From an uncultured Gammaproteobacteria bacterium (GTDB lineage Bacteria > Patescibacteriota > Patescibacteriia > Patescibacteriales > UBA12465), in NCBI GenBank assembly GCA_964470695.1, contig CAYYDR010000001.1, positions 465,997 through 529,996 on the forward strand: a stretch of DNA of 64,000 nucleotides, written 5' to 3'. Shown piece by piece: positions 3,732 through 64,000 of the stretch. The translations under genes and the position numbers were made by a program. The notes beneath the pieces were generated by a model. That model saw only the letters and a program-made list of their open reading frames with translations, did not search any database and was not told the origin of the DNA. How positions within the stretch are numbered: the stretch's first letter is position 1; the number at the start of each line of letters is the position of its first letter.

Positions 3732-5537
3732 ATGAAAAAATTTAATAAAATTTTGACAATTATATTCACCATAGTTTTTATACTGGGATTTAATGAACCG
3801 ATAGCGGTGTTGGCCGCCACGACACCATCCTTGGGGATGGCTAATACCTATAGTGTTCTAGCTGGCACCTATACTAATACGGCCGCCGGAACAACTATCA
3901 CCGGCGATATTGGCTTTACTACCGGGCCAGCCGTTGTTCCGGCCGGAGCGCATCCTAATTATGGAGTCGGAGCGCCTTATGCCACCGCTGGTGTAGACCA
4001 GGATAATGCTTTATCAGCCTTAGCCCTGCAGGCTTGTACTTATAATTTCCCGGCCGGAGCTATTAACCTGTCTACTGATATAACGCATGGCCCAATTGGA
4101 GTTTATGCCCCAGGTGTTTACTGCAGCGTTGGAGCGATGGATATAGGCGGCCCCCTTAATCTTAACGGGAGTGGAACTTATATTTTTAGAACCTTAGGGG
4201 CTCTTACCTCTACCGCGGGAGCAACCATTACTCTAACTGGAGCATCGGCTTGTGATGTATTTTGGACGCCGACTCAGGCTACTACCTTGGCTGCTAATAC
4301 GACCTTTGTCGGAACCGTTATAGACGCCGCTGGTATTACCATCGGAGCTAATACTACTTGGTCGGGAAGAGCCTTGGCTTTTGGTGGGACAGTTACTACT
4401 GATACAAATACTATTGCGGTGCCAACTTGTGTTAACCCGGCTGCTTCATCTTTTTCTCGTACCGGGACTATTAACGTTGTTAAAGTAGTCATTAATGATA
4501 ATGGCGGCACTAAGACGGTGTCTAATTTTCCTTTATTTATTAATGGTTCGCCAGTCATTTCGGGAACCACTAATACTTTTCGGGCCCCTGGTGATGTTTA
4601 TAAAGTTACTGAAACGGCTGATTCTAATTATACCCGGACTTTTTCGGGTGATTGTGATGTTAACGGCGGCGTGAATTTGGTTCCCGGTGATAATAAATTT
4701 TGTATAATTACAAATAATGATATAGGCGTTGCTACTATTGCCTCGCCTGTTCCTCCGCTTATTGATGTCATAAAAGTTCCTGACCCTCTGGCTTTACCTA
4801 ATGGCCCTGGCTCAGTTATGTATACTTATACGCTCCGCAATATCGGAACAGTCCCGGTTACAAACATTACCATGGTTGGCGATACGTGTAGTCCTATCAA
4901 ACTTATTTCGGGCGACACGAATTCGGACGCTAAGTTAGACCTGAATGAAACTTGGGTGCATCGTTGTTCCACAATTCTCTCGGAAACTCATACTAATACC
5001 GTAGTAGCGACCGGCTGGGCTAATGGTTTAAGCGCGACTGATATTGCTAGCGCTAGAGTTGTGGTCGGTTTACCAGTAGTCCCGCCCTTAATTCATGTGA
5101 CAAAAGTTCCTAACCCTTTAACCTTGCGAGCCGGCGGCGGATTAGTCACTTATACTGAAAAAATAACTAATCCTGGAACAGTCGCTCTGAGTAATGTTAG
5201 CCTAGTTGATGATAAGTGCAGTCCCATGAAATATATTTCCGGTGATACTAACGGTAATTTAAAGCTTGAGACTACCGAGACCTGGACCTATACTTGTAGC
5301 CAAAATCTTACCAAGACCACCGCTAATACGGCTATAGCTCGAGGTGAAGCTAATGGTCTAGTAGTAAGAGATTTGGCCATTGCCACCGTCGTGGTCGCCG
5401 CTGTTTCCCCTCAATTGCCTAATACGGGAATTTTTTCCACGGGGGATGAATTTCCTTGGAGTATGGTTATATTGTCTAGTATTCTAATAGTAATTTCGGC
5501 TTCAATTATTTTGACTATGAAGAAACGGGTTCGCTAA
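3732..5537 (+). CDS. LPXTG-anchored surface protein with N-terminal DUF3494 (ice-binding-like) domain and two tandem Ig-like repeats
   Basis: Signal peptide. TYSVLAGTYTNTAAGTTITGDIGFT is typical of DUF3494. C-terminus has LPNTG, a hydrophobic stretch and KKRVR. Confidence 0.75.
   Translation: MKKFNKILTIIFTIVFILGFNEPIAVLAATTPSLGMANTYSVLAGTYTNTAAGTTITGDIGFTTGPAVVPAGAHPNYGVGAPYATAGVDQDNALSALALQACTYNFPAGAINLSTDITHGPIGVYAPGVYCSVGAMDIGGPLNLNGSGTYIFRTLGALTSTAGATITLTGASACDVFWTPTQATTLAANTTFVGTVIDAAGITIGANTTWSGRALAFGGTVTTDTNTIAVPTCVNPAASSFSRTGTINVVKVVINDNGGTKTVSNFPLFINGSPVISGTTNTFRAPGDVYKVTETADSNYTRTFSGDCDVNGGVNLVPGDNKFCIITNNDIGVATIASPVPPLIDVIKVPDPLALPNGPGSVMYTYTLRNIGTVPVTNITMVGDTCSPIKLISGDTNSDAKLDLNETWVHRCSTILSETHTNTVVATGWANGLSATDIASARVVVGLPVVPPLIHVTKVPNPLTLRAGGGLVTYTEKITNPGTVALSNVSLVDDKCSPMKYISGDTNGNLKLETTETWTYTCSQNLTKTTANTAIARGEANGLVVRDLAIATVVVAAVSPQLPNTGIFSTGDEFPWSMVILSSILIVISASIILTMKKRVR
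4749..5403 (+). repeat. two tandem repeats of about 108 codons inside the surface protein gene
   Basis: PPLIDVIKVPDPL...CSPIKLISGDTN... and PPLIHVTKVPNPL...CSPMKYISGDTN... align along their whole length. Confidence 0.7.
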
Positions 5538-5544
5538 CTTATAG

Positions 5545-6141
5545 ATGACTCAATTAAAAAAAATATTATTTGTTATTAGTTTTTCCGGAATAAGTTTTCT
5601 GGCAGTCATTATTTTTTTCTCAAGTTTTAACTGGTTTGCCCTTTGTTCTCAAGCTAAATACGCTTTAGCCGCCGGCAGTCCAGTTAAAACTAAATTAGTA
5701 AAAATTGATCGTCTTCGCATCCCCGCTATTAATATTAATATCCCCCTAGAACAGGTGGGTTTAACGACTCAAGGAGCCGTAGATGTGCCACGTAGTCCTA
5801 TTAGCGCTGCTTGGTTTAATCTTGGACCGCGTCCCGGCGACAACGGCAGTGCTGTGGTTGTCGGGCATTATGGCCGCTGGAAAAATGGTTTGTCAGGGGC
5901 CTTTAATAATCTATCCAAGTTGCGTCAGGGCGATAAAATATATATTGAAAATGCCAAGGGATCAACCACTATTTTTGTGGTTCGCGAGCGTAAATCATAT
6001 GATCCCCAGGCTGATGCCTATGATGTTTTTAATTCCGATGATGATAAACCCCATCTTAATCTCATTACCTGCGAGGGGGCCTGGGACAAAGTTTCTAAAA
6101 GCTATTCTAAGAGATTAGTAATATTTGCTGATAAGCAATAA
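5545..6141 (+). CDS. sortase-family transpeptidase
   Basis: N-terminal TM anchor; HYGRW (catalytic His region); LITCEG (TLxTC Cys motif). Starts 7 nt after its LPNTG substrate gene. Confidence 0.8.
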   Translation: MTQLKKILFVISFSGISFLAVIIFFSSFNWFALCSQAKYALAAGSPVKTKLVKIDRLRIPAININIPLEQVGLTTQGAVDVPRSPISAAWFNLGPRPGDNGSAVVVGHYGRWKNGLSGAFNNLSKLRQGDKIYIENAKGSTTIFVVRERKSYDPQADAYDVFNSDDDKPHLNLITCEGAWDKVSKSYSKRLVIFADKQ

Positions 6142-6167
6142 ATATTATTAAAATTTACTATTTGGAG

Positions 6168-6196
6168 TTGAATTATTTTTAAAGCCATGCTAGAAT
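6168..6196 (+). promoter_or_regulatory. promoter of the trp leader (TTGAAT-17-TAGAAT)
   Basis: TTGAAT at 6168-6173, 17-nt spacer, TAGAAT at 6191-6196. The ATG at 6205 lies 8 nt downstream. Confidence 0.55.
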
Positions 6197-6204
6197 AATT
6201 TTGT

Positions 6205-6267
6205 ATGAATCAAAATAGATTTCAAACAGTCAGTCAGAGCTGGTGGACTACCCTTACTATTGGGTAG
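6205..6267 (+). CDS. trp leader peptide (20 aa, tandem Trp codons)
   Basis: ATG AAT CAA AAT AGA TTT CAA ACA GTC AGT CAG AGC TGG TGG ACT ACC CTT ACT ATT GGG TAG translates to MNQNRFQTVSQSWWTTLTIG. Below the ORF-track size cutoff. Confidence 0.55.
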   Translation: MNQNRFQTVSQSWWTTLTIG

Positions 6268-6295
6268 CTGGTTTTTTGTTTAAAATCAATTTTTT

Positions 6296-6334
6296 AAAAC
6301 TACCCGATAGATTATAAATATCGGGTAGTTTTTT
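6296..6334 (+). terminator. attenuator terminator (segments 3:4) upstream of trpB
   Basis: AAAACTACCCGATA-GATTATAAA-TATCGGGTAGTTTT gives a 14-bp stem ending in T6. Segment 2 (TATTGGGTAG, 6258-6267) can pair with segment 3 instead. Confidence 0.65.
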
Positions 6335-6444
6335 ATTTACTAAATTTATTATTATGCATTATTATTTCTATAACCGATCAACTCAGCCTTGGCGACTCAC
6401 TTAATCGTTGTAGTTTTTTAATTATTTATTTAAATTTAAAATAT

Positions 6445-7644
6445 ATGGAAAATTCCTTAAAGTTATTACCTAATCAAGCTGGTTATTTTGGTGAATATGG
6501 CGGCCAGATAATTCCGCCTGTTTTAAAGCCAATTTTTGACGATATTGCGGCGGCTTATAAAGAAGCTCAGGCTGATCCGAGTTTCAGGGCCGAATATGAA
6601 GGCTTGTTAAAAAATTATGTGGGGCGTCCTTCGCCCTTATATTACGCTCGTAATTTATCGGCTAAATTAGGGGGCGCTAAAATATATCTAAAAAGAGAAG
6701 ACCTTAACCATACGGGCGCTCATAAAATTAATCATACTTTAGGCGAGGCCCTACTAGCTAAAAGAATGGGAAAAACTAAATTACTGGCCGAAACTGGTGC
6801 GGGACAGCATGGCGTAGCCTTGGCCACGGCGGCGGCCCTAGTCGGGCTAGAATGTGAAATTCACATGGGTGAGATTGATATTGCTAAGCAGCACCCTAAC
6901 GTTATCCGTATGCAGCTATTAGGGGCAAAAGTCGTGGCGGTTAAATCGGGCGGCCGCTGTCTAAAGGATGCGGTTGATAGCGCCTTTGAATCATTCGTGA
7001 AAGACCCGGTTAATATTTTTTTCGGCATTGGCTCAGTAGTTGGCCCGCATCCTTTCCCGATGATGGTCAGAGATTTTCAATCCATTGTCGGGCAAGAAGC
7101 GCGCGGCCAAATATTAGAGCAAGAGGGAAGATTGCCTGATTATTTAATAGCTTGTGTTGGTGGTGGCTCTAACGCGATTGGCTTATTTCACGAATTTCTG
7201 GATGATAAATCGGTTAAAATGGTAGGGGTTGAGCCAAGTGGTAAAAGCTTTAAGTCCGGTGAACACGCGGCGACTTTAACGTTAGGAACGCCTGGTAATA
7301 TTCATGGCATGTTTACTTATTTATTGCAGGATGATAAAGGACAGCCCTTGCCAGTCCATTCTATTGCCTCTGGTTTAGATTATCCCGGCGTCGGGCCGGT
7401 CCATTCGGATTTAAAGGATAAGGGAAGGGTGGCTTATGACTCTGTTAATGACGAAGAGGCTTTGCAAGCTTTTCAGACCTTAAGCAAAGTAGAGGGCATA
7501 ATTCCGGCTCTAGAGAGCTCTCATGCCCTGGCTCAGGCGATTAAATTAGCTCCTTCGCTAGGCCAGGATAAAATTATTATTGTTAACCTATCGGGCCGCG
7601 GTGATAAGGACATTGACTATGTAGCCGATAGATTGAAATTGTAA
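6445..7644 (+). CDS. trpB: tryptophan synthase beta chain
   Basis: [22 protein letters not shown] (PLP-Lys motif), GGGSNAIG and SGRGDKD are all present. Confidence 0.95.
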
Positions 7645-13508: not shown

Positions 13509-13925
13509 ATGTCTTTAATTATTTGGAAAGATGAATTCGCGCTTGGTATAAAGGAGATTGATGATCAGCATCAAAAAATGTTGAGTATCATTAATAAATT
13601 ATATAGTTTATTTGAGAATGAAAAGCATGAAGATCTTTTGGAAATAGATAAAATTATTAAAGAGATGTCTGATTATGCTACTTATCATTTTGAGACTGAG
13701 GAAAAATATTTTGAACTTTTTGGCTATGAAAAGGCTGCTGAGCATATCAAAATTCATAATCAGTATAAGCTTAGAGTTGATGAGTGGCGCCGGCATTATG
13801 ATGCGAGTAAAGACAAAAAAGTATTTTTTGAAATTTCTAACTTTTTACAAGACTGGTGGACTTGGCATATTAATAATACCGATCGTAGCTACGTTCCATT
13901 CTTAAAAGCTAATGGCGTCAAATAA
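13509..13925 (+). CDS. hemerythrin-like metal-binding protein (bacteriohemerythrin)
   Basis: IWKDEFALGIKEIDDQHQKM, plus HFETEE and H..W..HI metal-ligand spacing. Confidence 0.85.
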   Translation: MSLIIWKDEFALGIKEIDDQHQKMLSIINKLYSLFENEKHEDLLEIDKIIKEMSDYATYHFETEEKYFELFGYEKAAEHIKIHNQYKLRVDEWRRHYDASKDKKVFFEISNFLQDWWTWHINNTDRSYVPFLKANGVK

Positions 13926-14328
13926 TATGAATACATACAATTGGTACTCACAATTAGTAAAACCATCTTGGGCGCCGCCATCCTGGCTTTTTGGCCCAGC
14001 CTGGACATTTCTTTATACCTTAATTGCCATTTCTTTTGGAAGGGTTTTCTGGTTGTTTTTTCAAAAGAAGCTCCCATTAATAGTTGTCTTGCCCTTTATT
14101 TTGAATCTTTTTTTCAATTTCATTTTTACTTATTTGCAATTCGGATTAAAAAATAATTTTTTAGCAGCCCTGGATATTATCTTGGTGCTAATCACGATTA
14201 TTTGGATTATGGTTGCTATTTATCCTCATGTCCGTTGGGTCGCTTATATGCAGATTCCTTATTTGCTTTGGGTTTCTTTTGCTACCGTTTTGCAACTAAC
14301 AATTACTTATTTAAATCTAAATAAATAA
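13912..14328 (+). CDS. tspO: TspO/MBR-family tryptophan-rich sensory protein
   Basis: LVKPSWAPPSWLFGPAWTFLY; 5 TM segments; overlaps the hemerythrin gene by 14 nt. Confidence 0.85.
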   Translation: MASNNMNTYNWYSQLVKPSWAPPSWLFGPAWTFLYTLIAISFGRVFWLFFQKKLPLIVVLPFILNLFFNFIFTYLQFGLKNNFLAALDIILVLITIIWIMVAIYPHVRWVAYMQIPYLLWVSFATVLQLTITYLNLNK

Positions 14329-50047: not shown

Positions 50048-51151
50048 TTATTTCAATTTTAACAATTGATTTTGGTATACTTCTAAAACTTTCTTGGCAA
50101 CAATGGGCCAGGTAAATTCTTGAGCCACTCTTTCATAGGCTAGCTCAGCCTTGCTAGCGACTAAGCTGTCATTAGTTAGAAGTTCCTCTAACTTTACTTT
50201 TAGATCGGATATGTCTTGGCTTTTAAAAGAAAAGCCGGTATTTCTAATAGCCTCTAAATTGGCGCAGATGTCACTAACTAAGCAAGCTTTTTTATGAGCC
50301 ATTGCCTCAAGCAGGGAAATTGACAAGCCTTCCATTTCTGATGGTTGAACAAACAGGTAAGTATTAGCATATAACTGATCTAAAACTTGGCCACTTTGGT
50401 TGCCAGTAAATATAATTCTATCGTCGCCAGCCGCTAGCTTTTCTAGTTCAGCTAAATATTCACCAGAACCAGTTACAACTAATTTCTTGTCAGTTTTTAA
50501 TTGTTTGAAGGCGGGAATTAGGTATTGTAACCCCTTAAGTTTAATAATTCTAGAAACACTTAAAATATAATTATTAGGGCTTAAACCCCAGGCTCTTATC
50601 TTGTCATCGCCCTCTTTATTGTATAGATTTGCCCCATTAGGGATTAAAATTGGTCGTCTTTGATATTTATTTTGTATATAATCTTGCATGGCTCCAGTCA
50701 GAACTATAACTTCGTCAGCATAGCGGCACATTAGCCTTTCTCCTAACTGCAGCATCAATTTTGCAAAACCACTCCATTTTTGGTTATAGTAATCAAAGCT
50801 ATGCAGGGTGGCAACTATTTTTAAATTAGGGTTAAGCAACTTTGGTAACCAGCAGAGCAGGGACGGACCTATGCCCTGGAAATGGACTATGTCTACTTTT
50901 CTATTGGTAACATCAAGGCTTGATAATAGTGTATGAGTTATGTTGGCTAAGTTTTTATTATTAATAAAAGGTTTATTAATAATTTTAATATTTTTGAATT
51001 CTTCTAGTTTTTCTGGCAAGTAATTATTACGGTTATATACTAAAACTTCCTGGCCAGAAGAGACCAGGTTTATTGCTAAACTTTCCACATATCTTTCTAC
51101 GCCGCCGTTCTGGGCGGGTATTCCTTTTTGTCCAATAAAGGCAATTTTCAT
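50048..51151 (-). CDS. GT4-family glycosyltransferase
   Basis: KGIPAQNGGVERYVE and PSEMEGLSISLLEAMAH (EX7E). Confidence 0.9.
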   Translation of the reverse strand: MKIAFIGQKGIPAQNGGVERYVESLAINLVSSGQEVLVYNRNNYLPEKLEEFKNIKIINKPFINNKNLANITHTLLSSLDVTNRKVDIVHFQGIGPSLLCWLPKLLNPNLKIVATLHSFDYYNQKWSGFAKLMLQLGERLMCRYADEVIVLTGAMQDYIQNKYQRRPILIPNGANLYNKEGDDKIRAWGLSPNNYILSVSRIIKLKGLQYLIPAFKQLKTDKKLVVTGSGEYLAELEKLAAGDDRIIFTGNQSGQVLDQLYANTYLFVQPSEMEGLSISLLEAMAHKKACLVSDICANLEAIRNTGFSFKSQDISDLKVKLEELLTNDSLVASKAELAYERVAQEFTWPIVAKKVLEVYQNQLLKLK

Positions 51152-59900: not shown

Positions 59901-60950
59901 TTATGGCTTAACAACCTGGCCGTCCCCAGCGTTAAAGCGATCTTTATCTAATTCGGTCGTTAAACGGCTAAAACTATTTTTTATTTCTTCTCCGGTCAGC
60001 ACATCATACCCGTAGTATAAACCACTAATCGTTAGCGGCAATACTTGGCCAGCCTGGGACTCTTCTGGGGTTAAACGGACTTCAAAACTCAAGCGATAAC
60101 TATCGCTACCAGCGGCTAATTTAGGCAGCTTCCAAATAATCTGGCGGGTTGAGCTGCTGTAGTTAAAGTCGCCTGCTAATAAGGAGCGATTGCCAGTTAA
60201 TTCTACGCCCTTAGGAAGACGCGCGCTAAAAACTAGATTTTTAAAATCACCATCACTGCTAGCTTCCCAAAAAATCCAATAAGTAGTTGGTATGCCTACT
60301 ATTGGCGGCAAAGGACCAATACCCAATTGATCGCCTTGGGGGCTAGTATAATAAGCGGCATCTTTAACTAGCAATTCAGCTGCTAGGCGTAAAGGAGGCA
60401 GATTAAAACTTTCTTTTAGCAGCTGACCGTTAAGGATATATTGGCTTTGCGCTTGCCAGTTAATAGTTCTCTCTTTGCCTTTGTTTACAAAATAAACTCG
60501 TAAAGATATTTCCCCTTCTGTTCCCGCCTCAATCCTGGATAATGTTATGTTCCGCCCATTAATTTTAAGGAGACTACTGGTTGAAGCAGCCTCTAGACGG
60601 CTTAGGCTAAAATTTTTATCCAGAGAACTAAAACCAATATTTATATCTTGAAAAGGGACGGCTGAACTATTTTTAAAATTTATTTTTAAAATGGAGCCAT
60701 CTTTAAGATTGGTGGTTGAAGTAGCGACTGCGAAATTAAATTCTAAAGGAGGATTATTAAAATCAACCGCTACGCGCCCGGGGGCGTTAACGCCTGATAG
60801 CTGGGGATGGTAAAAATATAGAGCCATAGTCCCAACCGCCAGCATAATAATTATGGTCAGGAGGGAAAAATCTAAAATAAAATGCCAATAATTCTTTAAA
60901 TAATATCTTTCCCAGCGGCCACGGATGTAGCGATGAATGATTCTTATCAT
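59901..60950 (-). CDS. hypothetical membrane-anchored extracytoplasmic protein
   Basis: The likely start is MIRIIHRY at 60950, 7 nt after the upstream stop; the track start at 61010 would overlap that gene. One TM segment and a beta-rich ectodomain. Confidence 0.55.
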   Translation of the reverse strand: MIRIIHRYIRGRWERYYLKNYWHFILDFSLLTIIIMLAVGTMALYFYHPQLSGVNAPGRVAVDFNNPPLEFNFAVATSTTNLKDGSILKINFKNSSAVPFQDINIGFSSLDKNFSLSRLEAASTSSLLKINGRNITLSRIEAGTEGEISLRVYFVNKGKERTINWQAQSQYILNGQLLKESFNLPPLRLAAELLVKDAAYYTSPQGDQLGIGPLPPIVGIPTTYWIFWEASSDGDFKNLVFSARLPKGVELTGNRSLLAGDFNYSSSTRQIIWKLPKLAAGSDSYRLSFEVRLTPEESQAGQVLPLTISGLYYGYDVLTGEEIKNSFSRLTTELDKDRFNAGDGQVVKP

Positions 60951-60957
60951 ATAATTA

Positions 60958-62976
60958 TTAATAAAAATTTTTAAGACCAGCGAGGATGTCCAATTCACCA
61001 TTTTCATCAATATCCCCGACTGTTACCTTGATGCCGCCACGGAAATTTTTATCATAGGCAAACCAGCTTTTTAAGGCTCTCCCTGATGAGTTAAATATTC
61101 TAATTTGCGGTCCGCCGCCTGACGCCGGAGCGGTTATTATTTCAATTTCTCCATCGCCGTTAACATCGCCAGCGGCAACGTTAACGCCGCCTTGAAATTT
61201 CTTATCATAAGCCAAAAAACTATTTTTCAAAATTCCTTTTAAAGAAAAAATTTTAATAAGCGGCTCCTCGCCCCGCCCTGGCCCGGTAATAATTTCTTCT
61301 TCGGCATCATTATTTATATCAGCTATCGCCACATTAACTCCTCCTCTTAATTTTTTATCATAAGCAAACCAGCTCCCTAATAGCTTGCCATTCGTGTTAA
61401 ATATCAGAACCTGGGGACCGCCGCCAGGACCAGCGCCTACAACAATTTTTTTAATATCACCATTATCTAATTCAGCTGCTAAGCTAACAGTGGCCTTAAA
61501 AGATTTAGAAAAGGGGTAAAAAGAAGATGTTATTTTGGCATTTTTAAATAAATTTACCTGTCCGCCTGAAGCGCTTAAATTTACTAGCGGCTGAGAATCT
61601 TCTGAGCTAGAAACAGAAATTATTTCCGCTTCGCCGGGCGAAGACTTCAAATAGGAGAAGAATCCGTTGCGATTTTGTCTTCCCTGCCAGTCAAAAACTC
61701 TAAAAAAATAGCCGTTAGTAAAGGGGTAATTTTTAATTAGAGTGCTTCTCTTTAACAAAAGTATGCCGTCATCAGAATCTAGCTGGATATAATTTATTCT
61801 CTGGCCATTATTAAACAAAGGACTTTGCTCACCTTTTATTTTCTCAAATTCCTCCAAATTAAAGACATAGGTTTGCTTTTTACCGCTAGAATTTACAATA
61901 GCTGACCCATTTTTAAAATCTCGCCGCCAGAGCCCTGGTTTTATTTCGGAATTATTATTAAGCAGGAGGTTATAAGGTCTGGATAGAGCCGGCCCTAAAT
62001 CAACATTATATTCATCATACCACCAAGTCTGCCCGTGGCTTGTTACATCATAGTCATAGCTATAGAAACCGTCGCCTAGCAAAGTACTAGCTAGTCCATA
62101 TCGGAAATGACGATAGTTAGCCTGATTTTTATCATATATATTAATAACTGGTAATTGCGGCGCAACATTTACTGTCGGCAGTTTTAAATAAGTTTTCATT
62201 GAGCCTGACCAGGTACCGCCATTTTCCCAAAAAGATGGAAAACTTTCTAACATCATGCCGTTTAATAGCGATTGATACCCGTCATAAACGCGGCCATTAC
62301 CAATAATAATAAAATCTGGACCAGCTAAGTTTCTAGTTTTAGCCAACATTTTTTTAAAACCATCGGCCCAAAGGCGATTGGATTCTGAGGAATCATCCGC
62401 TACTAAGTTATTATCCAAATCTAAGCTTTTATTATTAACCCAAGTAACGTCGCCCCAAGTATTATCATAGAAAACTCCGTCCCATAAGCCGCTAGCTTTA
62501 AGTCTAGTAACTACAAATTCTGGCAGATAATCATTAAAACGAAGGCCTCTCGGATCGGCTTTAGCGCCGTCGGAAAGATTCAGCATGTTAGTATAAGGCC
62601 AATTAGAGACTTTATTTCCTTGGGAATCTTTTAACCACCAGCCATCGTGAATATTCTCTCTTAACTCCTGCCTAAGGTAAGCGTTATTATAATGCCTGAT
62701 ATCATCTATTATTTCCTGGGAAGTTATATAAGCTAAAATGATAATTTTCGGGTTAAGCTCTCGTATCTTTATAATCTGATCGCGACTATTTTCTTGAGTT
62801 TCCATGTCAAGAATTAAAAGATCCCATTTAGCTAATTCCTGGGCCTCAGTATCCGATATTTCCCACTTCAAAAAATAATTGGCTAAACGCGGATAAGATG
62901 CTTTTAAAGTAGCCGCTTGAACAATGAGCGGCAAAGTAAGGCTGGAAATAATTATTGATAAAATAATTTTTTTCAT
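60958..62976 (-). CDS. secreted GHL15-like putative glycoside hydrolase fused to four FG-GAP/VCBS-like repeats
   Basis: Signal peptide; N-terminal half is paralogous to 39805..40836. The C-terminus has 4 copies of F.YDK.(F/L).GG(V/I).V..GD(I/V)(N/D)..G..(E/D)I(I/L). Confidence 0.65.
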   Translation of the reverse strand: MKKIILSIIISSLTLPLIVQAATLKASYPRLANYFLKWEISDTEAQELAKWDLLILDMETQENSRDQIIKIRELNPKIIILAYITSQEIIDDIRHYNNAYLRQELRENIHDGWWLKDSQGNKVSNWPYTNMLNLSDGAKADPRGLRFNDYLPEFVVTRLKASGLWDGVFYDNTWGDVTWVNNKSLDLDNNLVADDSSESNRLWADGFKKMLAKTRNLAGPDFIIIGNGRVYDGYQSLLNGMMLESFPSFWENGGTWSGSMKTYLKLPTVNVAPQLPVINIYDKNQANYRHFRYGLASTLLGDGFYSYDYDVTSHGQTWWYDEYNVDLGPALSRPYNLLLNNNSEIKPGLWRRDFKNGSAIVNSSGKKQTYVFNLEEFEKIKGEQSPLFNNGQRINYIQLDSDDGILLLKRSTLIKNYPFTNGYFFRVFDWQGRQNRNGFFSYLKSSPGEAEIISVSSSEDSQPLVNLSASGGQVNLFKNAKITSSFYPFSKSFKATVSLAAELDNGDIKKIVVGAGPGGGPQVLIFNTNGKLLGSWFAYDKKLRGGVNVAIADINNDAEEEIITGPGRGEEPLIKIFSLKGILKNSFLAYDKKFQGGVNVAAGDVNGDGEIEIITAPASGGGPQIRIFNSSGRALKSWFAYDKNFRGGIKVTVGDIDENGELDILAGLKNFY

Positions 62977-62985
62977 TGTCTAATG

Positions 62986-64000
62986 CTATTTCTTGGGTGC
63001 CGGGATGCAGTCTAGGCCGTTAGGCATATATTTACGTAAAACTTCGGGTATTATTACTGAGCCGTCAGCCTGTTGATTTTGCTCTAAAATAGCCGGCAGT
63101 AGTCGGCTAGTAGCCAAGCCAGAGGCATTTAGAGTATGAACAAATTCATTCTTGCCGCCGGTTTTTTTATAACGAGTCTGCCCGCGCCTAGCTTGGTATT
63201 CTAAAGCATTAGAAATACTGCTAACTTCCTTATATATTTCCATGCTGGGGATATAAACCTCTAAATCATAGGTTTTAGCCATAGCCGCACTGCAATCGCC
63301 AGCTGCTAGCTTAGAGACCTGGAAATGCAATCCTAAACCCTGAACTAATGATTTAGCATTTTCTACAAATTCATCAAAAATCTGCCAAGATTCTTCGGGA
63401 TGACAAAATGAAAACATTTCAATCTTATTAAATTGATGTCCCCTAATCATTCCTCTTTCTTCTTGCCGATAACTTCCCGCTTCCCGACGGAAGCAAGGAG
63501 AGTAGGCAAAATATTTTAGAGGCAAGGAGCTATCGTCTAATATTTCTTCACGATGATAATTGCCTAACATCATTTCACTAGTAGCATTTAAGCAAAGAGC
63601 ATCCTGGGTCCAAAAAAGATCATCTCTAAATTTAGGAAGATGGCCAGAGGTATAAGCTGATTTTTCCGTTAAAAGAAAGGGTGGAATTAAGAATTGATAG
63701 CCGTTTTTGGTATGGTATTCAATAAAATAAGACAAGAGCGCCCATTCTAGTAAAGCGCCTAAGCCTTTATAGCACCAAAAACCAGACCCAGACATTTTAA
63801 CGGCTCGTTCATAGTCAATCAACCCCAGGCTAGTTGCTAATTCAACATGGTCGCGAGGCGTAAATTTAAATTCTGGTTTTTTGCCAAAAGTGAAAATAAC
63901 CTCATTATTTTCCTTTCCCCCGGCTACAACATCGGCGGCTGGTAAATTTGGCAACTCCGCCAATTTCTCATTCAAATTAACTTCCACTGAGGCGAGTTCT
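62986..64000 (-). CDS. serS: serine-tRNA ligase, 5'-partial (continues beyond window end)
   Basis: Class II aaRS motifs (GSGFWCYKG, FRREAGS, TLNASGLATSR). The frame is open to nt 64000. Confidence 0.95.
   Translation of the reverse strand, partial: ELASVEVNLNEKLAELPNLPAADVVAGGKENNEVIFTFGKKPEFKFTPRDHVELATSLGLIDYERAVKMSGSGFWCYKGLGALLEWALLSYFIEYHTKNGYQFLIPPFLLTEKSAYTSGHLPKFRDDLFWTQDALCLNATSEMMLGNYHREEILDDSSLPLKYFAYSPCFRREAGSYRQEERGMIRGHQFNKIEMFSFCHPEESWQIFDEFVENAKSLVQGLGLHFQVSKLAAGDCSAAMAKTYDLEVYIPSMEIYKEVSSISNALEYQARRGQTRYKKTGGKNEFVHTLNASGLATSRLLPAILEQNQQADGSVIIPEVLRKYMPNGLDCIPAPKK

Follow-up and report, generated by a model that had tools for sequence, protein, structure and literature searches.

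The window analyzed here, a stretch of 64,000 nucleotides (nt) of the contig CAYYDR010000001.1, carries a trpB gene, identified by TIGR00263 with a score of 573.8 bits against a cutoff of 392, that is preceded by a leader region consisting of a promoter, a short open reading frame (ORF1) with two adjacent tryptophan (Trp) codons, four RNA segments with alternative pairing potential, an intrinsic terminator, and a second small ORF (ORF2) located between the terminator and trpB (Table 1). The original prediction for this region was a Trp attenuator with the logic of Escherichia coli trpL, which within the window controls only trpB, in an organism that looks like a reduced bacterium of the candidate phyla radiation (CPR) type. 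Of the 56 window ORFs with 120 or more amino acids, 50 were scanned with Pfam, and trpB was the only trp gene found among them; three of the other six are short antisense ORFs nested in larger ones, and three are the final ORFs of the window, at 59901-63987. The closest named relatives of this TrpB (78-89% identity) are labelled Candidatus Falkowbacteria, Patescibacteria group or Parcubacteria; judging by these labels, which bear out the CPR-type affiliation, the source organism is a member of the Patescibacteria, near Candidatus Falkowbacteria. From the established chemistry of TrpB, the lone enzyme presumably makes Trp from scavenged indole and serine.

Table 1. Features of the trpB leader region (positions are those of the window)
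Feature	Position	Strand	Description
Sigma-70-type promoter	6168..6196	+	-35 TTGAAT, 6168-6173; 17-nt spacer; TG, 6188-6189; -10 TAGAAT, 6191-6196
ORF1, leader peptide MNQNRFQTVSQSWWTTLTIG*	6205..6267	+	20 codons; TGG TGG, 6241-6246; stop codon TAG, 6265-6267, inside segment 2
Segment 1, CTACCC	6248..6253	+	Partner of segment 2; would lie under a ribosome stalled on the Trp codons
Segment 2, CTATTGGGTAG (= (C)TATTGGGTAG)	6257..6267	+	Partner of segment 1 or 3; overlaps the ORF1 stop codon
U6 then G	6272..6278	+	Ends 10-11 nt past the 1:2 hairpin; candidate pause site of RNA polymerase, or else a weak first terminator
Intrinsic terminator	6296..6334	+	Segment 3, AAAACTACCCGATA, 6296-6309; 9-nt loop; segment 4, TATCGGGTAGTTTT, 6319-6332; T6, 6329-6334
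ORF2	6354..6404	+	In the 110-nt spacer between terminator and trpB; invariant TGG, 6390-6392, then rare Arg codon CGA, 6393-6395
trpB, tryptophan synthase beta chain	6445..7644	+	Putatively regulated gene; AU-rich start without a Shine-Dalgarno (SD) sequence

Promoter, leader ORF and pairing segments

The sequence agrees with the original prediction in all its coordinates: the promoter hexamers and their spacing, the ATG at 6205, 8 nt past the -10 hexamer, the leader ORF with its tandem Trp codons, and segments 1 to 4 followed by the T6 tract are where they were proposed to be. The promoter, with its extended -10 element, scores 9 out of 12 in a consensus scan. ORF1 has two consecutive Trp codons among 20, compared with 1.24% Trp in the genes of the window. 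The terminator cores of the original segment list, CTACCCGATA(G) at 6300-6310 and TATCGGGTAG at 6319-6328, the latter followed by T6 at 6329-6334, are parts of longer arms: according to a repeat finder, 6296-6309 and 6319-6332 are complementary over 14 nt at 100%, so that the proposed 14-bp stem of an intrinsic terminator is a perfect inverted repeat followed by T6. Segment 2, which had been described as a near copy of segment 4 and hence as an exclusive alternative partner of segment 3, indeed belongs to the same repeat family, and the 2:3 duplex of 11 nt (6257-6267 with 6300-6310) is 91% complementary, or fully paired when its single G.U pair is counted. The remaining proposed helix, 1:2, which would sequester segment 2, forms in the predicted fold of 6203-6340. 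This fold consists of 1:2 and 3:4, with an energy of -40.6 kcal/mol and a z-score of -4.9, and none of 200 shuffled sequences is as stable. The helix energies are -9.9 kcal/mol for 1:2, -17.3 kcal/mol for 2:3 (-12.7 kcal/mol for the stem alone) and -18.6 kcal/mol for 3:4. The best duplex of the leader with the 5' arm of the terminator (-17.5 kcal/mol) falls exactly on the ORF1 stop codon, and this value is reached by none of 500 dinucleotide shuffles (mean -8.2, standard deviation 2.0 kcal/mol). The U-run at 6272-6278 is flagged by the scan as terminator-like.

The geometry of the promoter predicts that ORF1 is leaderless. A -35 hexamer (TTGAAT, TTGATT or TTGCAT) and a mostly TG-extended -10 hexamer are found at the same place in the relatives described below, and the distance between the -10 hexamer and the leader ATG is exactly 6 nt in 11 of 16 loci and 7-9 nt in the others, the window (8 nt) included, so that the A of the ATG falls at the usual position of the transcription start. 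An SD-like motif precedes only 8 of 53 window genes, and in 7 of 52 a TATAAT-like hexamer (match of at least 5 out of 6) is found exactly 6 nt before the start codon, the distance at which such hexamers are most frequent. This points to leaderless mRNAs and initiation without an SD as a common trait of this genome, not peculiar to ORF1. The counts took in the start regions of the window ORFs, for example those at 1542, 16601, 22805, 50048-51151 (minus strand) and 55068. The intergenic DNA of the window contains no other short ORF that combines adjacent Trp codons with a leaderless promoter. A leaderless Trp leader is not unprecedented, given that the trpL attenuator RNA of Sinorhizobium meliloti is leaderless (PMC6614838), and in mycobacteria, leaderless short ORFs rich in consecutive Cys codons act as Cys sensors (10.1101/834739).

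Conservation and covariation of the leader module

The DNA around 12 TrpB relatives (76-89% identity) was fetched, and two public collections were scanned as well. A module consisting of a TTGAAT-like -35 hexamer, a mostly TG-extended -10 hexamer, an ATG 6-9 nt further on, an ORF of 15-20 codons with one or more Trp codons, segments 1 to 4 and a U-run is located upstream of trpB in the window and in 11 of the 12 fetched relatives, all 11 with a TrpB at least 78% identical to that of the window. The layout is kept, with different helix sequences, in three loci where TrpB is 71% identical (L001, L081 and L082; the helices of L082 read ACUGUCC/GGGCAGU/ACUGCCCGA/CGGGCA). Still more distantly, in L089 (TrpB 68% identical), a leader with the motif W-R-W-W and a terminator directly precede trpB, that is, ORF1 is present and ORF2 is absent. 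In the window, trpB has a class F sortase gene on one side and a SpoU-type methyltransferase gene on the other; the flanking genes differ in each genome, and the upstream gene is often on the opposite strand. The module is thus kept with trpB amid changing neighbours and, accordingly, belongs to trpB. The hairpin followed by T6 was also considered as the terminator of the upstream sortase gene, an assignment that was rejected because the relatives have another gene upstream, often on the opposite strand.

Because the element always lies directly upstream of trpB on the same strand, while all its other surroundings differ, it is highly improbable that the promoter, ORF1 and the terminator make up an independent small RNA (sRNA) gene, or a dual-function RNA like rnTrpL, that acts mainly in trans, with the control of trpB secondary or absent. 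A gene of this kind would account for a discrete product of ~125-130 nt that has a promoter to itself and ends at a strong terminator, and there is a precedent in the attenuator-derived rnTrpL, which acts in trans in S. meliloti (PMC6614838), but a plain sRNA would have no need for Trp codon(s) in frame, a stop codon in or near segment 2 or an exclusive 2:3 pairing, all of which an attenuator requires. The trpB gene, 110 nt further on, could then depend on a weak promoter, TTTACT-18-TATTAT at 6336-6365, except that the TATTAT hexamer represents the Tyr-Tyr codons of ORF2.

Counterparts of ORF1 with 15-20 codons, and with Trp codon(s) in frame at a constant distance from segment 1, occur in 15 loci, and across the loci with the module the stop codon is in or just before segment 2. 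The N-terminal part of ORF1 is not conserved as a peptide (synonymous to nonsynonymous changes, 82:468), and this drift is what is expected of a leader in which codons are sensed. The terminator is present in all 15 loci, although that of L081 was read by eye, as the script did not pick it up. Past the 1:2 hairpin, a U-run followed by a G comes after ~9-10 nt in 10 of the 12 close loci and after 6 nt in the other two, L173 and L174; this arrangement has been seen at 6272-6278 of the window and in L161, L163, L165, L167, L169-L172 and L176. It has the geometry of a hairpin-dependent RNA polymerase pause site, from which we infer a pause at this position that would allow time for ribosome loading.

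Covariation was computed on a 12-sequence alignment, A1, with controls in which the partners were slid by 1-3 columns. In this comparison, which had been suggested as a check along with the original prediction, all three helices are maintained, at ~91-93% paired cells, with compensatory changes. For 1:2 and 3:4 taken together, 92.7% of the cells are paired and eight pairs are changed on both sides, with neither value reached in 500 shuffles and with 37-52% paired in the slid controls; taken separately, 1:2 is 91.5% paired, with two pairs changed on both sides, and 3:4 is 93.2% paired, with six such pairs. The 2:3 helix is 91.1% paired, compared with 29-50% in the slid controls, and has three pairs changed on both sides, a number that 23 of 500 shuffles reach. 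The changes involve the segments jointly: in L172, CCC/GGG is replaced by CUC/GAG in all four segments together, and in L165 and L174, CUACCC/GGGUAG is replaced by CUGCCC/GGGCAG. Among 15 loci, 11 have the best complement of the terminator 5' arm overlapping the ORF1 stop codon and three (L171, L174 and L082) have it starting 1-3 nt away, which leaves L001 as an exception; an equally good duplex is produced by no more than 4 of 500 shuffles in 11 of the 15. When cognate partners were compared with permuted ones, the observed mean was reached in 2 of 5000 permutations.

The timing of the alternatives was addressed with a model of the ribosome footprint, which extends from -15 to +12 relative to the A-site codon, combined with a nascent RNA cut before segment 4. 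In the window, a ribosome stalled on the Trp codons would reach ~6253-6256, so that segment 1 (6248-6253) would be fully covered and segment 2 (6257-6267) left free. Placing the footprint on the Trp codons makes 2:3 the minimum-energy structure of the nascent RNA in each of the 15 loci; placing it on the stop codon excludes 2:3, but by construction, since the mask covers segment 2. Constrained folding, a check suggested along with the original prediction, therefore supports the switch on the nascent RNA, but not on the full-length RNA, which keeps the terminator in 11 loci. Only in L165, L174, L081 and L082 does the full-length leader switch thermodynamically, and a switch at equilibrium was accordingly rejected. 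Given that the equilibrium fold does not switch in most loci, the switch must be co-transcriptional, that is, kinetic. The terminator of E. coli trpL is likewise more stable than the antiterminator, and the choice between the two is kinetic there.

A probable ribosome-mediated tryptophan attenuator

Taken together, these observations suggest, with a probability of roughly 0.85, that the element is a ribosome-mediated leader-peptide transcription attenuator that couples the transcription of trpB to the supply of charged tRNA-Trp. The locus combines the defining components of a trpL-type attenuator, namely a Trp-rich ORF, a terminator, the mutually exclusive 2:3 and 1:2 pairings, and the matching geometry of the ribosome mask. 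The trpL-type logic of the original prediction is thus supported by a module that is conserved, covarying and tied to trpB in the relatives. Transcription would start at or within 2 nt of A6205, as the promoter geometry indicates, with a ribosome loading directly on the 5' AUG, and RNA polymerase, having passed the 1:2 hairpin, would probably pause at 6272-6277, in the U-run, for the ribosome to catch up. When charged tRNA-Trp is plentiful, the ribosome would reach the UAG codon at 6265-6267 and cover segment 2, so that 3:4 would form and transcription would terminate at 6329-6334, releasing an RNA of ~125-130 nt. When it is scarce, the ribosome would stall on UGG UGG at 6241-6246 and cover segment 1, and 2:3 would pair before segment 4 is made, resulting in read-through into an RNA that carries ORF2 (6354-6404).

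Several observations weigh against this interpretation or limit it. The 2:3 helix is no better than in shuffles in L171, L173, L001 and L081 (36-96 of 500), and most of the close relatives share a nearly identical GGGTAG core, so that few independent evolutionary events stand behind the covariation. When segment 1 is masked in the full-length leader, the terminator is still the minimum-energy fold in the window and 10 other loci. The tandem of Trp codons, the conservation of which was among the suggested checks, is only partly retained: an ORF with Trp codon(s) is found in 15 loci, but three relatives have a single Trp codon in ORF1, in the context W-R (CGG) in L161 and W-Q in L173 and L176. 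L175, with a TrpB 76% identical to that of the window, lacks the module. The transcription start, the pause and the dependence on Trp are all inferred from sequence, and the mechanism needs a coupling of transcription and translation in CPR bacteria that is tight enough for the kinetics. Finally, in view of ORF2, the attenuator may not be the whole or the main control of trpB.

The ORF1 sequences with a single Trp codon are located at 2265-2327 in L161, 2252-2308 in L173 and 2250-2312 in L176, and all helices are kept in these loci; either one Trp codon is enough or the response is weaker. The region upstream of trpB in L175 (2242-2500) contains neither ORF1 nor ORF2; there is a small hairpin with a U-run (AGTTGC AGTA GCAACT TTTT) ~70 nt before the start codon, as well as an ORF of 46 codons without Trp.

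The conservation pattern of ORF1 also bears on the nature of the sensor. If the attenuator were governed by an RNA-binding protein, TRAP-like or other, or by an uncharged tRNA, with ORF1 not translated, there would be no reason for the ORF, its frame and the positions of the Trp and stop codons to be conserved while the N-terminus of the peptide drifts, or for an ATG to be located at the predicted transcription start in 16 loci. Regulators of this kind do occur before lone trpB genes in other lineages, namely a T-box in L054 and a gene for a TrpR/YerC-like protein in L002, L011, L042 and L087, but in Rfam searches of the window and of a set of 20 loci, neither the window nor any of the 13 related CPR-type trpB loci in the set, 12 of which have the module while the other is L175, shows a T-box or another family at the gathering score; there are only sub-threshold, chance matches to sRNAs at E up to 10. 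The T-box (RF00230), which the original prediction had named as the family to exclude, has no match in the window at E up to 10, and the same search finds the T-box upstream of trpB in L054 with 127 bits (2683-2911; a metagenome-assembled genome (MAG) of Izemoplasmatales). An array of the TRAP type, with 9-11 (G/U)AG triplets that are spaced by 2-3 nt and overlap the antiterminator, is not apparent either, as not even three triplets are in register within 6142-6444. A sensor other than the ribosome is, in our estimate, very unlikely. The TrpR/YerC-like genes are immediately upstream of trpB in these four loci (Gracilibacteria, Gastranaerophilales and others), with no trp genes before trpB.

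Compared with well-characterized systems, the ribosome-mediated attenuator proposed here shares with E. coli trpL the short ORF with tandem Trp codons, the 1:2 pairing, the 2:3 antiterminator and the 3:4 terminator with a U-run, the stop codon in or next to segment 2, and a U-rich stretch past 1:2 at the pause position. It differs in the lack of sequence or covariance-model similarity (Rfam, Pfam and NCBIfam searches being negative), in a leader that is predicted to be leaderless whereas that of E. coli is SD-driven, in the presence of one salvage-type gene instead of trpEDCBA, and in the second conserved ORF past the terminator. The trpL/rnTrpL system of S. meliloti is likewise a Trp leader-peptide attenuator with a leaderless transcript (PMC6614838), but it regulates trpE(G), both its RNA and its peptide have functions in trans, it has no second upstream ORF, and it is alphaproteobacterial and unrelated in sequence. 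With the polycysteine short ORFs of mycobacteria (Canestrari et al., 10.1101/834739), the leader shares a leaderless sensory ORF containing consecutive codons for the amino acid of the respective pathway, on which a stalled ribosome remodels the downstream RNA; the intrinsic terminator and the 2:3 antiterminator, that is, transcriptional control, set the trpB leader apart.

Trp-rich short ORFs followed by a terminator are also located 100-300 nt upstream of trpB in L012, L017, L033, L089 and L143. The leader of L012, a MAG labelled Actinobacteria, encodes MHIVTQWWIA* and has a -10 hexamer six nt before the ATG, plus a terminator; L017 and L033 belong to Bacteroidota, and unclassified contigs are represented as well. 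The sequences of these leaders are unrelated to that of the window, and none has the ORF2 motif. Leader-peptide control of trpB therefore seems to be widespread, in unrelated sequences.

CPR bacteria are mostly uncultured and have reduced ribosomes, and their gene regulation is barely known; no literature was found on attenuators or trpB leaders in CPR or Patescibacteria. The trpB leader represents a switch of a known type in a lineage new for it, with a predicted leaderless start such as much of the genome seems to have, and its one new feature is the peptide-conserved ORF2. A conserved leader-peptide attenuator would imply that transcription and translation in CPR bacteria are coupled closely enough for kinetic RNA switching, and that leaderless initiation at a 5' AUG is efficient enough to act as a sensor. 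Tight, Trp-dependent control of a lone trpB would fit the salvage of indole from the environment or a host, a dependency consistent with an episymbiotic lifestyle. Being absent from Rfam, Pfam and NCBIfam, the element is at present invisible to annotation pipelines.

The second small ORF and other genes of the window

ORF2 was overlooked in the original prediction and, unlike ORF1, is conserved at the level of the peptide. It is found in 15 of 16 loci, L089 being the one without it, and has the core x-Y-Y-F-x-N-(R/K)-(S/A/C)-T-(E/Q/Y)-x-W-R; recognizable versions, such as MDKFIFKQHCTESWRN*, extend to the loci with 71% TrpB identity. The entropies of the three codon positions are 0.53, 0.45 and 1.0 bits, and the ratio of synonymous to nonsynonymous changes is 203:247, compared with 66:401 and 86:380 in the shifted frames. 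The Ser residues are encoded by TCA, TCC, TCG and AGC, and Thr by all four ACN codons. The motif is found nowhere else in the six-frame translation of all 176 loci, and neither the ORF1 nor the ORF2 peptide has a Pfam or NCBIfam match at E up to 10.

The conservation ends at the Trp codon and the residue that follows. Past the Trp, which is W13 or W14 (W18 in L173), ORF2 either ends 1-14 codons later or continues further, and the residues that follow W-R number between none (L170) and more than 12. CGA accounts for 53 of 771 Arg codons in the window (6.9%), less than any other Arg codon, yet it is kept after the Trp codon in 10 of 12 close loci, while neighbouring third positions vary freely; in the window, ORF2 uses CGA at both of its Arg positions (6375-6377 and 6393-6395). 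A conserved core that ends at an invariant Trp and a slow codon, followed by a free tail, looks like a nascent-peptide arrest element.

In L171 (2411-2500) and L001 (1914-2012), ORF2 has no stop codon and continues in frame into trpB, yielding an N-terminal extension of ~30 residues. As evidence of a protein partnership, these in-frame fusions are uninformative, with two observed compared with ~0.8 per 15 loci expected by chance in a rough estimate. Database entries for TrpB that are longer at the N-terminus (P0003, P0061 and others) were set aside as well, as they reflect start choices of gene callers and do not contain the ORF2 motif.

No conserved RNA structure was detected around ORF2. Single-sequence folds of the ORF2-trpB region have z-scores between -0.1 and +1.8, no more stable than those of shuffled sequences, and RNAalifold predicts no consensus pair at all. 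The window itself has a hairpin, CUAUAACCGA (6368-6377) with UCGUUGUAG (6405-6413), followed by U6 at 6414-6419, that encloses the Trp codon of ORF2; a second attenuator or terminator at 6368-6419 was nevertheless rejected, given that this hairpin is not conserved in relatives and there is no consensus structure. Pairing of ORF2 codons 4-7 with the start region of trpB (UUUCUAUA with UAUGGAAA) was discarded because in nearly all loci it is no better than in shuffles. A separate promoter for ORF2 or trpB was likewise dismissed: the TATTAT hexamer at 6360-6365 corresponds to the Tyr-Tyr codons of ORF2, and no consistent pair of -35 and -10 hexamers exists across the loci.

The best guess for ORF2 is that it probably serves as a second checkpoint, translational and dependent on the nascent peptide, on the SD-less trpB message. 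Alternatively, a stalled ribosome might protect the mRNA, ribosomes might be relayed to the SD-less trpB, or the product of ORF2 might be a micropeptide partner of the stand-alone enzyme. In a more specific and, at this point, speculative version, which we regard as rather unlikely, ORF2 would represent a new class of sensory nascent peptides: a second signal (free Trp, indole or tRNA charging) would cause ribosome stalling at UGG-CGA, and ORF2 and the ORF1 attenuator would jointly place the stand-alone, indole-salvaging TrpB of CPR bacteria under a gate with two inputs. If true, ORF2 would be the first arrest peptide, and this the first coupled transcription-translation control, demonstrated in CPR bacteria. 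ORF2 is a clean candidate for a regulatory nascent peptide, and its 14-residue sequence is available for experiment.

The partial parallels to known systems help delimit these possibilities. The Salmonella mgtCBR leader (PMC3641672) also contains two short ORFs that are read by ribosomes as separate inputs; each of these ORFs governs its own stem-loops, whereas ORF2 has no associated structure and is conserved as a peptide. With TnaC and other arrest peptides (PMC8429421, PMC11890864), ORF2 shares the nature of a short upstream ORF, a conserved peptide core with an invariant Trp, and a Trp-related locus. Unlike in TnaC, there is no Asp at W+4 and no terminal Pro at W+12, nor any other conserved Asp or Pro, the tail varies in length, the regulated gene is biosynthetic rather than catabolic, and the arrest is only putative.

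The absence of these TnaC hallmarks also bears on the distribution of roles between the two ORFs. The constraint at the peptide level is stronger on ORF2 than on ORF1, and the invariant Trp codon followed by the rarest Arg codon, with a free tail after W-R, is a pattern typical of arrest peptides, so that ORF2 itself might be the decisive Trp sensor, acting through peptide-dependent ribosome arrest on the translation of trpB or the stability of its mRNA, with the ORF1 attenuator setting the basal level. However, no mechanism was found by which a stall at 6390-6395 would affect the start of trpB, located 50-55 nt further on: there is no structure to open, the start region does not pair with ORF2, and the footprints would not overlap. 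Furthermore, L089 has ORF1 and the terminator without ORF2, and ORF1 bears every feature of a working attenuator. We consider a decisive role of ORF2 in Trp sensing unlikely.

Two other loci in the window are of note. A 601-amino acid protein encoded at 3732-6141, directly upstream of the class F sortase gene, contains an ice-binding-like domain and DUF7507 and is probably a surface-protein substrate of the adjacent sortase. At 13509-14328, a gene with a hemerythrin domain extends into the start of a gene for TspO/MBR (‘tryptophan-rich sensory protein'); the pair is unusual cargo for a reduced genome and, as far as we can tell, apparently has no tie to the attenuator.

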